Shown: positions 267-57,005 of the stretch, piece after piece
Layout: the number at the start of each line of letters is the position of its first letter
Numbering within the stretch: the stretch's first letter is position 1
Assembly: GCA_040954595.2 (NCBI GenBank)
Contig: CM082594.2
Coordinates: forward strand, 10,978,276-11,042,275
Length of the DNA: 64,000 nucleotides
Direction of reading: 5' to 3'
From: Balanoglossus misakiensis
Taxonomy: Eukaryota; Animalia; Hemichordata
The notes under the pieces: model-generated
Database searches by the model: none
Seen by the model: only the letters and a program-made list of their open reading frames with translations
What the model was told of the DNA's origin: nothing
Position numbers and translations under genes: made by a program

Positions 267-408
267 TGACACCAAGTTTTACCGCGGAACCCCTCAACTC
301 AACGGTGACAGTTGGTGAAAGTGCGCGATTTAGTTGCAAAGCTGACGGGATACCAGAGCCCAGTTACCGGTGGGAAAGAAACGGCGAGGCGGTCTTACCG
401 AGTGGAAG
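267..408 (+). CDS. Paralog exon: Ig2 N-half (VTPSFTAEP...ARFSCKADGIPEPSYRWERNG)
   Basis: tttcag acceptor, AG|gtacg donor; 142 nt, the same length as PRTG exon 3. Confidence 0.9.
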
Positions 409-3400
409 GTACGATGCACCCGGAGAAGAAAAAAAAACTTTTTCAGTTTCTATCATATAAAAATTTCTCCATATGTCGCCACATTTAATCAACATTTTCA
501 CTGACATTTTATTTAATTTTTAATTTCAAGGTACACGGTATTGCCATCGGGAAGTATCCAGATTCATAACGCAGAGAGCAGGGACAACGGGAGTCAATTC
601 ACGTGCATCGCCGAGAACCTTGCCGGCCAACGAAGCAGCGTCGCCGCGACCCTCCAGGTTTTACCGCTGTCTCCACCCGAAGATGCCAATAGGATGAGAA
701 TCCTACCAGCGGGCCGTCAGCACGTTGTAAAACTGGCAGGGGAAACACTTGTACTGGAGTGTTTGGTTAGCGGCAGACCCGACAATGACGTCAAGGTGAC
801 TTGGAGTCGACAAGGTCAGTTCGCCGGACCGACGAAATTTGACAAATCTGCGCAATTTTATGATATTTTGTCTCGCCAGTATCCATAAAGATTTTATGTT
901 CTACACTAATCGCCCACCCCTTCGCTTTTAACCAATCCATCTTACAATTTTAGAAGCAAGAAATTTCGGCAAACACCACCGCGTTGTCAAGACCAATCTG
1001 AAAATAGTGAAGGCCAAAGTAGAGGACAGTGGTGTATACACGTGCACTGCACGGAACACTGCAACGGGTGAAGTTCTCCAAGCCAGAAGAAGACTGCAAA
1101 TTCAAAGTACGTGCACTGTAGTTAACGGTTTTAATTACAGCCGAAAGTCACTGGCACGTTTTGACAGTTGGGCATCACGTTAATTATCTTGTTTCCTTTC
1201 TTTTTTCTTTCATCACAACTCTCTCCAAGGTCCCCCGGAATTGGTGGTCGCTCCCAAGTCAATATCCAACGTTGTTGGCAGCACGGCAAGGTTCAACTGT
1301 GAAGCGAGCGGAGTTCCACAGCCGAACATAAAATGGCTGAAGAACGGCGAACCCATCTTCATCAACGGGCGCGTCAACCAAGTCGGTTTCCTGGGCGACC
1401 TGGTCATCTCCGGTGTCGTCACTGACAGTATGGACCAAGACGACGGTTTCTACCAGTGCGTGGCTCAAAATGTGCACGGTCAAGTCCAGGCTAGTGCGCG
1501 TCTCAGAGTTCGGAAAAGTAAGACTTGCGAAATTAGAGTATATGCCATCTGCACAAACTGGTGGAGTCGATCGGCGGAAGCTGGACACCAATGAATATTC
1601 AATAGCACACGTGCATATATTAATAACTTGTCAAAATCGGCGAAACCTGGGTGATTATTGAATATTTGGACGCGCTATATTTTATTACACTTCCCAACAA
1701 CCGTCAGAGGATGTTTAAAAAAAATCATGCCATGCTTGATTGTTTTGCCTGCTTGAATTAAATGAATTGAATTCAGGAAACACGTGCATTGTGGCAGATG
1801 CCAACAAATGCACAGTCTTCCTGTCCTTGACAATGTTTCGTGTTCATCGGTGTTGTCTTCTCGATCTAACCGATAGATTTTACAGGTCAGAACGGCCCCG
1901 ACTCGCCGAAGAATCTCCTAGGATCTTCCGTATCTTCAACTTCGATCGACCTCAGATGGGACGCTCCAGAGAGCCAACTGATCGCATACACAGTACATTA
2001 CGTACCGTCATCAGGTACAAGTTTAACTTCATTATCGATCGAGAATGCCAGTGAGGTTTTCCTCAATGACGATTTCGTTTTTGGTCCAGTCGCTTTATGC
2101 ACGTGTCAACCACAGTCGCTTGTGGGCTCCAAGTCGCCCCTTGGAGTATTTGTAGGGATAGCTCTGCGTACAGATCTAGACTTCTTGCCATCTCTGTCGT
2201 TTTCGAAGTTGCATGATGCCCGTCTCTTTCAAGTTCTCACTCCATGTTGCCATTCCGTCCGTAGGGGGTCGGGAATCACAGGTGGCCGTTTCTCCGACCA
2301 GCACCAACTACTTGCTGGACAATCTTGAGCCATTCACCATGTACGACCTCTACATAGTCGCGTACTCGGTCACCGCAGTCAGCGATCGCTCCGAAAGAAT
2401 ACACGTCAGGACCCAACAAGACGGTGAGTGTCGGTCACTATAGTGTTTGCAGTAAAAAGCATACACACACATAACTGTAGGCCAACGATTTTTGCTGTTT
2501 GATTCTGGAAATTGTTTTGACTTGCGTATTTCGCCAAACTTCGTGTAATAACACCCCTTAGTACGTATTTTCAGTACCGTCAGCATCGCCAGAGTTTTCT
2601 CTGTCCAGCCTCCAAGTCGGCATACTTGTGACGTGGGACGAGGTACCACTGGAAAACCGCAACGGTATCATTACCAAATACCGAATCTACTACCAGCAGG
2701 ACCGAAGAGGCGCTCAAGTCTCCATCGATGTTGACCGCAGTTTGAGCATGTTCATAGTCCAGGGGCTAGAGTCGGATGCTGTCTATGGTGTCTGGATGTC
2801 GGCATTTACAAGCGCGGGCGAAGGGAGGCATTCTGAGACCAGCAGCGTACGAACCACTCAGCAAGAGTCTTCACGTGAGTAGAAATGAGGGTCAAAGGTA
2901 TACAGTCCAATTCAAATCTATTAACCAATCATAGATTTTCAATGGGTGGTACACGCAAAAAAAGTGCGGCATCACATGCTATCCAAGCCAGCATCACTAA
3001 CTAAAAACATTGTTATATGGTAGAATTCTTGTAATACTGTTTTCTCATTACGCATCCATAGCAACGGAGAACGCCAAGATGCCGGCTCCCGATGATGTCA
3101 GAGCGGAGGTGACATCAAATAGTTCCATCAAAGTTGAATGGAGCGCATCGGAGTTGTACTCTGCCATATCCGTTCACTATGCGTCGTCTTCTGGTAAGCC
3201 TGGTGAAATTACCAGTTTTCCTCAATGTTGATGAATAATATTTTGGAATAATAAAATCGATACTATCCCATGCCGTGGTACCTCAAGTGCGTGGCATAGT
3301 TTCTTCCAAATTGCCAATAAGTATGCCGATTGAGTATTTGACATTTTTACAGATGACAGGGAGATGCGGGTAATTACAGACGGCAAGAGCAGCGCAGTGG

Positions 3401-56500: not shown

Positions 56501-57005
56501 CGGGATAGTCACGGCGACATAAAGTACACTGGTGACTCAGATTCGATCGCAGATGCAGTGAATGTAAACACTGTGTGACCCTCCCCCCTTCCGATCTTGA
56601 GCTTGACGTGTATGTTGCCTTTGGACATCATGGCCGCGTCCACCACCGTGTCCTCAGATAGCCTAAGCCGGGCCCATACAAACGATCTCGATATAGTGGC
56701 GTTACGCTAGGATATTACACAACCCCACAACACCGACCGAGGTTCAATCTGTCACGATAATTAATTTACATCGGCATCTGTAGGTCAGGACACTTTCAAT
56801 GTCACTGAGGATTCCTACAATCGCGATGTGAACTCGAACCCCGGCCGATGTATGTCAGATCATCAGAATGACCCACCGACACAAAATACTCGCACAACTT
56901 ACAATTCACACGGAATCACACATAAACCAGTTACTTACCTATCAATAATGGTATATAGAGAAATAGTATTAGCCACGATCTGAGGTCTGAAGGTTGGTGC
57001 GCCAT
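9900..57005 (-). CDS. PRTG: Protogenin (4 Ig, 5 FN3, TM, long cytoplasmic tail), 19 coding exons, ~1336 aa
   Basis: Exons (high to low): 57005-56939, 55511-55209, 33202-33061, 31527-31223, 30356-30198, 30058-29771, 29486-29346, 28730-28572, 27493-27191, 26979-26788, 13168-13082, 12873-12678, 12499-12372, 12235-12065, 11954-11760, 11594-11501, 11303-11105, 10919-10710, 10571-9900. They sum to 4011 nt in frame and all introns are GT-AG. The 4Ig+5FN3 layout, the TM GIIVGVSIGLGCIIVCIVFIV and the cytoplasmic motif DTKGG...INGYGP (recalled vertebrate PRTG DAKGG...INSYGP) point to protogenin rather than DCC/neogenin (6 FN3, P1-P3 motifs). Confidence 0.88.
10710..10919 (-). CDS. PRTG: PRTG exon 18 (cytoplasmic, GGNGTLINGYGP)
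   Basis: ttgcag acceptor, CAA|gtacgt donor. Confidence 0.78.
11105..11303 (-). CDS. PRTG: PRTG exon 17 (juxtamembrane cytoplasmic)
   Basis: ...ELESFTPML...MDTK|gtaag. Confidence 0.85.
11501..11594 (-). CDS. PRTG: PRTG exon 16 (transmembrane)
   Basis: GIIVGVSIGLGCIIVCIVFIVYRGR. Confidence 0.92.
11760..11954 (-). CDS. PRTG: PRTG exon 15 (FN3-5 C-half + stalk)
   Basis: GLKPSLGYYFKMAARTGAGEGPAS. Confidence 0.9.
12065..12235 (-). CDS. PRTG: PRTG exon 14 (FN3-5 N-half)
   Basis: PSSPPSNV...LQWAPPAHPNGIITTYVILY...W. Confidence 0.9.
12372..12499 (-). CDS. PRTG: PRTG exon 13 (FN3-4 C-half)
   Basis: LTNLVPFTEYQIAVRAHGRNSVGPYS. Confidence 0.9.
12678..12873 (-). CDS. PRTG: PRTG exon 12 (FN3-4 N-half)
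   Basis: PPVQVKG...ATVTWLRP...FYTIRF. Confidence 0.88.
13082..13168 (-). CDS. PRTG: PRTG exon 11 (FN3-3 C-end)
   Basis: KPLTRYFVKLIAVYEDGYS; completes the domain started 13.6 kb away. Confidence 0.85.
14313..14363. repeat. (GA)n microsatellite
   Basis: Direct reading. Confidence 0.95.
17518..17643. repeat. (CAT)n/(CAC) compound microsatellite
   Basis: Direct reading; source of the poly-Met pseudo-ORF. Confidence 0.95.
21556..21663. mobile_element. Possible small MITE with AACCCTTTCA...TGAAAGGGTT terminal inverted repeats
   Basis: 10-bp perfect inverted ends about 108 bp apart, CCCT...AGGG termini reminiscent of TTAA-targeting DNA elements. Confidence 0.35.
26788..26979 (-). CDS. PRTG: PRTG exon 10 (FN3-3 main part)
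   Basis: PLAPKLELEKLNSTAVWIHW...FQLFY...YILSGL. Confidence 0.9.
27191..27493 (-). CDS. PRTG: PRTG exon 9 (FN3-2)
   Basis: SPTSIIVTWEPL...NGEITGYHIYY...GLEANTVYSIKMSASTSVGEGP. Confidence 0.93.
28260..28430. mobile_element. Degraded MITE-like element
   Basis: Imperfect inverted ends gagtgaagcctgtc ... gagaggcttcgctg. Confidence 0.35.
28572..28730 (-). CDS. PRTG: PRTG exon 8 (FN3-1 C-half)
   Basis: GGREEQ...ENLQPNSYYLIYVTAY. Confidence 0.92.
29346..29486 (-). CDS. PRTG: PRTG exon 7 (FN3-1 N-half)
   Basis: PSSPTGL...SLRIQW...IIAYTVH. Confidence 0.9.
29771..30058 (-). CDS. PRTG: PRTG exon 6 (Ig4)
   Basis: TRPVGGTARFSCSAEGEPQPVIRWLKNG...DDALYQCVATN. Confidence 0.93.
30198..30356 (-). CDS. PRTG: PRTG exon 5 (Ig3 C-half)
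   Basis: NLKIEGLKIKDSGWYVCTATN. Confidence 0.92.
31223..31527 (-). CDS. PRTG: PRTG exon 4 (Ig2 C-half + Ig3 N-half)
   Basis: LPSGVLQIHNLQESDAGSYRCVAEN...GPQNVT...VVLECLA. Confidence 0.92.
33061..33202 (-). CDS. PRTG: PRTG exon 3 (Ig2 N-half)
   Basis: FVVQPEP...VARFSCSANSIPQAVYFWEKDR. Confidence 0.9.
54910..55056. mobile_element. MITE (non-autonomous DNA transposon, TA-flanked)
   Basis: Left end TACTGTAAAACGGGTTATTTTCGCGA; the reverse complement of the right end is TACTGTAAAACGGGTTAATTTCACGA (24/26 match, outer 17 perfect). Confidence 0.8.
55209..55511 (-). CDS. PRTG: PRTG exon 2 (signal end + Ig1)
   Basis: LEFTVEP...WDCAAEG...ITWRKD...NGSLYF...SDEGIYKCFASNGIGTIVSREARLQVA. Confidence 0.93.
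56939..57005 (-). CDS. PRTG: PRTG exon 1 (start codon, signal peptide)
   Basis: ATG at 57005; MAHQPSDLRSWLILFLYIPLLI-G|gtaagt; phase 1 matches exon 2. Confidence 0.78.

Follow-up and report, generated by a model that had tools for sequence, protein, structure and literature searches.

A protogenin paralogue with repeated FN1 domains and no predicted membrane anchor lies tail-to-tail with protogenin in an acorn worm

The stretch of Balanoglossus misakiensis DNA analysed here, 64 kb in all and called the window below, holds two related genes arranged tail-to-tail. On the minus strand lies the protogenin (PRTG) gene, which spans 9900..57005 and has 19 coding exons encoding 1,336 aa. Its product begins with a signal peptide (exon at 56939..57005), followed by four Ig domains, five FN3 domains (FN1-FN5), a transmembrane (TM) segment and a cytoplasmic tail. 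Ig1 has an exon of its own at 55209..55511, Ig2 to FN2 occupy seven exons of 142, 305, 159, 288, 141, 159 and 303 nt at 27191..33202, and FN3, FN4 and FN5 are encoded by exons of 192, 87, 196, 128, 171 and 195 nt at 11760..26979. The TM exon lies at 11501..11594, and the cytoplasmic exons (11303-11105, 10919-10710 and 10571-9900) fill 9900..11303. All 18 of the introns are GT-AG, and the protein is 66% identical to Ptychodera flava PRTG. No Rfam or tRNA matches were found in the window.

The plus strand carries a PRTG paralogue, whose visible part (Ig2-Ig4, FN1, FN2 and two FN1-derived repeats) spans 267..4312. Its first exon, of 142 nt and running from phase 1 to phase 2, encodes the first half of Ig2 (267..408); the second half of Ig2 is joined to the first half of Ig3 in a 284-nt exon (531..814), and the rest of Ig3 follows in 153 nt (954..1106). 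Ig4, the best-kept domain at 64% identity to the P. flava orthologue, is a single exon of 288 nt (1230..1517). FN1 is split between exons of 129 nt (1886..2014) and 159 nt (2265..2423), and FN2 is a single exon of 300 nt (2575..2874). Beyond these lie the first FN1-derived repeat (3062..3511; exons 3062-3193 and 3353-3511), the terminal one (3624..4080; exons 3624-3782 and 3931-4080) and a candidate last coding exon of nine codons plus TGA (4284..4312). An earlier note had described 12 exons, intact and in frame, and we confirm this: 12 exons separated by GT-AG introns of 112-368 nt form a single open frame of 693 aa. With stops as frequent as in the window, a run of 685 codons would be free of them by chance with a probability of about 2e-15, a rough figure for exons that were chosen by hand. 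In the visible Ig2-4, none of the six Ig cysteines has been lost. Both genes are real. By comparison with orthologues, the signal-peptide and Ig1 exons of the paralogue would be placed to the left of the window. A possible Ig1 remnant at 1-266 did not rise above background: with three queries, the fractions obtained from 300 random windows were 0.35, 0.05 and 0.12.

We compared the two genes exon by exon. The claim that they match throughout, phases included, is correct for exons 1-7 of 11, which correspond to Ig2-FN2 of PRTG, but fails for exons 8-11. The identical lengths of 142, 288 and 159 nt for the Ig2a, Ig4 and FN1b exons are borne out, and the shared Ig4 motif with its same-length loop is present in both proteins. 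Exons 8-11 measure 132, 159, 159 and 150 nt, are all phase 1 and repeat the FN1 exon pair; they are unlike the FN3/FN4 exons of PRTG, which measure 192, 87, 196 and 128 nt and include one phase-2 intron. Among all post-FN2 domains of the TM-less proteins described below, the FN1 profile scores best for 7 of 7. The paralogue is therefore not, as had been proposed, an ectodomain cut after FN4, since its last two FN3 domains are copies of FN1 and not PRTG FN3 and FN4; the FN3, FN4 and FN5 exons of PRTG have no counterpart in it. By sequence, the layout of the TM-less gene is Ig1-4, FN1 and FN2, then two to three tandem copies of FN1. We infer that the part of PRTG that ends with FN2 would have been duplicated first, and that the phase-1 FN1 exon pair would then have been copied more than once.

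At the 3' end of the paralogue, the donor at 4081 scores 12.2, joint best among 29 donors. The nine-codon exon ending ESLARPEDF, opened by an acceptor at 4284 (score 5.9), is possible but is one of three candidate ends and is absent from both orthologues; an acceptor at 4253 (score 6.8) opens a non-hydrophobic frame of 126 aa, and reading through the donor yields a basic tail of 34 aa. The view that there is no TM or GPI-signal exon has stood up, as the most hydrophobic 19-mer of the paralogue reaches 0.99 on the Kyte-Doolittle scale, compared to 3.05 in PRTG. On the plus strand after 4080, tblastn with FN5, TM and tail gave no match. The orthologues reach 1.25 and 1.47, compared to 2.8-3.3 in eight TM-bearing relatives; as a control, a 19-mer of at least 2.0 occurs in 140 of 144 database rows from the PRTG/IGDCC family. 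For a C-terminal GPI-type signal, judged by hydropathy only, the best 12-mers in the last 30 aa of the three TM-less proteins score 1.05, -0.01 and 0.29, and no KDEL-like ER-retention motif is common to their C-termini.

An exon encoding an anchor could still have been missed by all three gene models. As the donor at 4081 is strong, a further exon is to be expected, and errors of this kind do occur, since 2 of the 142 remaining family rows (polar-bear IGDCC3 and carp PRTG) are also modelled without a TM. Among 352 AG sites at 4120-11000, 26 fall within the training range and one opens a hydrophobic frame, at 9340 (score 6.2; 19-mer 2.1). This frame, however, would require a 5.3-kb intron, compared to 112-368 nt elsewhere in the gene, and lies antisense just beyond the stop codon of PRTG; a short ATC repeat accounts for some of the frame's hydrophobicity. 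Moreover, the two orthologues, whose species belong to different families, stop at the same point and carry no anchor, and family TM or tail queries find no plus-strand match in the window. We thus regard a missed anchor as improbable.

The orthologues are RefSeq proteins from P. flava (XP_070536750.1, 801 aa, 53% identical to the paralogue) and Glandiceps talaboti (XP_077993244.1, 930 aa), both automated gene models. Each stops a few residues past its last FN3 domain and carries neither a TM segment nor a GPI-like tail, and each begins with a hydrophobic, signal-peptide-like segment (best 11-mers 2.85 and 2.84, by hydropathy). These anchorless models from two other acorn worms strengthen the earlier description of a PRTG paralogue that is intact, TM-less and encoded by a gene of its own. 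In a tree of the Ig2-FN2 region (22 rows, DCC/neogenin outgroup), the three TM-less proteins group together (95/96) within a clade of acorn-worm sequences (100/99), and the 19 ingroup rows, comprising PRTG, IGDCC3, IGDCC4 and the paralogue, stand apart from DCC/neogenin (100/100). The terminal FN3 domains of the TM-less proteins also form their own clade (100/84). As the three proteins form one clade, the duplication is older than the split between Ptychoderidae and Spengelidae, which is dated to over 370 My ago (PMC11175523). No sequence from echinoderms, lancelet or Saccoglossus was found among the best 120 of 221 named matches, or among 63 of 63, with about 8,000 word-sharing candidates scored in each case. 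In a representative search with Ig4, none of the best 150 matches listed was PRTG-like over the core, and giant multi-Ig proteins dominated; all that the ESM Atlas returned was generic clusters of Ig/FN proteins and sequences resembling IGDCC3.

These results bear on whether the plus-strand gene could instead be a recent, truncated duplicate in decay. Its last acceptor is weak and its Ig3b exon has diverged, as such decay would have it. Yet the existence of orthologues in two families largely refutes this reading, and a tree joining both window genes is rejected (p-AU 5e-5). Between window PRTG and the paralogue, synonymous sites are saturated (pS 0.84) with dN at 0.48, and the Ig2-4 cysteines are intact; the sequence is under constraint, and decay is most improbable. 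A local inverted duplication, as had been proposed, is the correct kind of event, but the p-AU and pS values make it ancient. Per-domain identity between the paralogue and its P. flava orthologue is 44-64%, and Ig2-FN2 has diverged faster in the paralogue than in PRTG (identity 48-64% compared to 61-73%).

An AlphaFold2 model of the P. flava TM-less protein (pLDDT 85) shows eight beta domains, with a helix at the N-terminus and none at the C-terminus. The four N-terminal Ig domains have a DCC-like arrangement: Pfam I-set marks four stretches in both orthologues (the window itself holds Ig2-4 only), and Ig1-4 of the model align with Ig1-4 of DCC (3LAF) at a TM-score of 0.75 by target; no solved PRTG-family structure is among the 27 PDB sequence hits.

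Our data are consistent with a model, to which we give a probability of about 0.5, in which an ancient duplication of PRTG in acorn worms produced the plus-strand gene, FN1-repeated and anchorless in the gene models of three species, whose product is likely secreted and likely binds PRTG ligands, lowering or spreading their signal. Secretion is likely given the hydrophobic N-termini of the two orthologues, and ligand binding is likely by analogy with vertebrate PRTG alone. Vertebrate PRTG raises GDF11 signalling through its ectodomain while held at the membrane. A GDF11-like growth factor or WFIKKN would be the candidate ligand common to both proteins, and a free ectodomain would bind it away from the membrane, as a sink or a carrier, so that less signal reaches the receptor or the signal is spread. 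That the paralogue would likely act as a decoy for the PRTG ligand, or present it, extends the vertebrate data in a reasonable way. As the second FN3 domain of Punc groups with PRTG FN3, a domain absent from the paralogue, the WFIKKN2 site of the paralogue could be missing.

The protein might instead be a secreted matrix or guidance molecule that acts on a surface partner, PRTG or another receptor, and not on a growth factor, with its FN1 repeats as spacer or matrix anchor. Chick PRTG mediates homophilic adhesion; Ig1-4 of the model match the adhesion horseshoes of contactins and sidekicks as well as DCC, the Ig4 domains of paralogues (57-64%) resemble each other almost as closely as those of orthologues (64%), and the number of FN1 repeats varies between two and three, as a spacer might. 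However, RGD is absent from the five acorn-worm ectodomains checked, and the terminal repeat, which is 61% identical to P. flava and 42% to the Glandiceps terminal domain, ranks with the best conserved domains, beyond what a plain spacer needs; this role is possible but on balance unlikely. Lower still is the likelihood of an immune or mucus protein that binds microbes outside the PRTG pathway, in the manner of hemolin, which PMC11999971 describes as a four-Ig immune protein of moths. The hemolin structure (1BIH) matches Ig1-4 of the model (TM-score 0.69 by target), and the paralogue has evolved faster than PRTG, but the search turned up a single copy in each of the three species, with nothing to suggest expansion, and the gene still adjoins PRTG in the window.

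If the secreted, ligand-binding reading is correct, a conserved anchorless member would provide a natural soluble probe of the PRTG pathway in a model for deuterostome body-plan evolution, although its reach is limited, as it is so far seen only in acorn worms. The selective repetition of FN1 would also predict where PRTG-family receptors bind GDF11 or WFIKKN2, a site unmapped in the literature excerpts searched. More speculatively, and with rather doubtful odds, the protein may be a multivalent secreted FN1-repeat trap, kept tail-to-tail with PRTG for more than 370 My, that shapes a GDF11/WFIKKN field and so adjusts axon guidance or the timing of posterior Hox genes; the FN1 repeats would then mark the ligand-binding module of the whole PRTG/Punc/Nope family.

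In the literature excerpts seen, members of the PRTG/Punc/Nope group are described as membrane receptors, and our literature search found no description of a soluble, separately encoded one. The words 'protogenin', 'PRTG' and 'IGDCC' are absent from the supplements of PMC11618098 and PMC12768270 (two files each). Like protogenin (PRTG/IGDCC5), a DCC-subclass IgSF receptor, the paralogue has Ig1-4, FN1 and FN2 in the same order with the same intron phases, shows 41-43% identity with acorn-worm PRTG and 33% with the rat protein, and is nested among acorn-worm PRTGs in the tree. Unlike a protogenin receptor proper, it lacks, in its gene models, FN3-FN5 and thus the set of five FN3 domains, the TM helix and the cytoplasmic tail, and has two to three extra FN1 copies instead. 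By hydropathy, it also lacks the hydrophobic C-terminal signal of GPI-anchored IgSF proteins of the contactin type. It belongs to the same subfamily as Punc (IGDCC3) and Nope (IGDCC4) but, unlike these type-I membrane proteins, is anchorless in the models. Punc is also a shortened member, with two FN3 domains (PMC10084454); a clade joining it to the TM-less proteins, as for a Punc/IGDCC3 orthologue, is rejected (p-AU 9e-6). Drosophila Plum, given in PMC10497343 as a distant homologue of PRTG/Nope and a modulator of a GDF11-type ligand, is set beside the paralogue by description, not sequence, and differs in being transmembrane.

In other families, soluble paralogues of receptors are well known. 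IL-22BP and CRLF1 are separately encoded soluble receptor paralogues, and hemolin originated from neuroglian; to our knowledge, none of the three was built by repeating one FN3 exon pair. The paralogue comes from an unrelated family but, like them, appears to have arisen when the gene of a membrane receptor or adhesion molecule was duplicated and the copy lost its anchor; it too would act extracellularly.

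The plus-strand gene (267..4312), an anchorless paralogue of protogenin (PRTG) visible from Ig2 onward, lies tail to tail with PRTG itself, their stop codons separated by 5.6 kb. The earlier note described the two as matching exon by exon. This holds for plus exons 1-7, which match PRTG exons Ig2a to FN2 in phase (paralogue/PRTG lengths 142/142, 284/305, 153/159, 288/288, 129/141, 159/159 and 300/303 nt), but it fails for exons 8-11, which measure 132, 159, 159 and 150 nt, all phase 1, against 192, 87, 196 and 128 nt in PRTG, whose FN4 has a phase-2 intron. The closest relative of the plus-gene Ig4 exon was P. 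flava protogenin B-like (66%; one of nine matches). On the minus strand PRTG is complete (57005-9900; 19 exons, 1,336 aa), with GT-AG introns in 18/18 and a transmembrane (TM) 19-mer of hydropathy 3.05. It can be aligned to P. flava protogenin B-like from the first residue through the last, and is 66% identical to its Ptychodera counterpart versus 51% to that of Glandiceps, which marks the animal as an acorn worm nearer Ptychodera than Glandiceps. Two PRTG introns are long, 22.0 kb (33203-55208) and 13.6 kb (13169-26787), and long CAT/ATC microsatellites occupy 17518-17643 and 60460-60580. A gene with a FAS1 (fasciclin) domain (62416-64000, plus strand) stands head to head with PRTG, roughly 5.4 kb away from the PRTG start codon; its first exon is signal-peptide-like, with an ATG near 62434. 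CpG is not depleted in the paralogue's exons and introns (0.99, 0.96; 1-4100) but is in those of PRTG (0.70, 0.66; 9900-57005), suggesting different germline methylation and therefore different expression modes.

Among the 120 matches listed, of 221 in a profile search, were three P. flava PRTG-like proteins, XP_070536713.1 (1,318 aa, TM), XP_070535967.1 (1,273 aa, TM) and XP_070536750.1 (801 aa), each on a 40,130,686-base contig. A second search with XP_070536750.1 gave 63 matches and retrieved G. talaboti XP_077993244.1 (930 aa), which lies on a contig equal in size to that of G. talaboti PRTG, XP_077993253.1. These equal sizes and the close accession numbers would fit a paralogue lying near PRTG in both species. 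Both orthologues, named 'protogenin-like' in RefSeq, have a hydrophobic N-terminus, four Ig and four or five FN3 domains, and terminate a few residues beyond the last FN3; we found no TM or GPI-like tail in either model. As a control, 140/144 family rows contained a TM-like 19-mer, the other four being models of carp PRTG and polar-bear IGDCC3 plus the two orthologues. Identity of the plus gene is 53% with its P. flava orthologue and 41-43% with acorn-worm PRTGs (database row P0001 and the window's own). A second PRTG paralogue of P. flava that bears a TM (P0161/P0279: XP_070535967.1, XP_070535966.1) also lies on an equal-size contig and has no counterpart in the window.

A review relates the PRTG family to DCC and neogenin, which are type-I receptors, and gives its members two or five FN3 domains (PMC10084454). 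The earlier note, which had the paralogue splice into its last exon after a fourth FN3, overlooked the architecture: the domains after FN2 are FN1 copies. In pairwise comparisons and with position-specific profiles derived from eight TM-bearing family members, 7/7 post-FN2 domains of the three TM-less proteins scored best with PRTG FN1; the window's terminal domain reached 53 bits on the FN1 profile versus at most 32 on others. Because these domains score FN1-best and share the FN1 intron position, the gene is likely PRTG copied in part, from the signal through FN2, and then lengthened as the symmetric exon pair of FN1 was duplicated in tandem. Terminal repeats from all three species group as one clade (100/84), and the repeat is 61% identical between window and P. 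flava, exceeded only by Ig4 (64%). AlphaFold2 models the P. flava protein (pLDDT 85) with eight folded beta domains and without a helix at the C-terminus, and the Ig1-4 part matches DCC Ig1-4. An unpaired cysteine in the terminal repeat (3624-3782, plus strand) is common to window and P. flava and lies elsewhere in Glandiceps.

In a tree of Ig2-FN2 (481 columns, 22 rows hand-picked from matches), the three TM-less proteins group together (95/96), nested in an acorn-worm clade (100/99). AU tests rejected the two window genes as sisters (p 5e-5) and the TM-less group joined to Punc (IGDCC3; p 9e-6). Over 477 codons the window genes differ with dN 0.48 and a saturated pS of 0.84. Glandiceps is a spengelid, and the ptychoderid-spengelid ancestor is placed >370 My ago (PMC11175523), a lower bound on age from a sampling with no echinoderm, lancelet or Saccoglossus row. 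The plus gene is old and real.

The donor following 4080 is joint best among 29 donors, and 26 of 352 AG sites at 4120-11000 fall inside the score range of 28 training acceptors, a range inflated by self-scoring. The nine-codon last exon proposed earlier, from an acceptor at 4284, is plausible yet not established, because that site scores 5.9 versus 6.8 at 4253 and read-through past the donor would give a basic tail of 34 aa; none of the three ends is hydrophobic, and tblastn of the window, queried with P. flava PRTG plus four acorn-worm relatives, turned up no FN5, TM or tail on the plus strand. One in-range acceptor, 9340, leads to a hydrophobic frame, but is distant and across a short ATC repeat; an anchor exon overlooked by the models is improbable. 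Just beyond the stop, a CpG-rich patch (4300-4900; observed/expected 1.3-1.4) holds CCAAT-like and ETS-like words and, near 4595, a strong donor on the minus strand (score 9.0); it may be where an antisense transcript across the paralogue has its promoter and first exon. With AATAAA at 5332 and 5865-6068 (plus) and 5415 and 6401 (minus), the two 3' UTRs could overlap in region 5300-6500.

The plus gene keeps a single frame across 12 exons, with introns of 112-368 nt; it very probably encodes a real secreted protein, and a decaying copy is hardly credible. The extracellular part of mouse Prtg binds Gdf11, boosting Smad2 signalling without the cytoplasmic tail (PMC11659552), ERdj3 has also been reported as a ligand (PMC3698544), and fly Plum modulates Myoglianin (PMC10497343). 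The second FN3-type domain of Punc falls within the clade of the third one of PRTG, FN3 (97/93; one Punc row), and Punc, Nope (IGDCC4) and Prtg appear to share Ig1-4, FN1 and FN3, of which the paralogue retains five of six, Ig1-4 and FN1. We give a probability of about 0.5 to its candidate role as a secreted ligand-binding protein that would compete with PRTG or feed it. That it acts as a matrix component or trans-acting ligand is a weaker possibility, and a hemolin-like immune protein (PMC11999971) is unlikely.

We found no description of an anchorless PRTG-family gene or of an acorn-worm protogenin in the full texts searched, a scope outside which most subscription papers fall. The known range of the paralogue is one class of animals, and its function is putative. 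Soluble receptor paralogues are a familiar design, as in IL-22BP and CRLF1.
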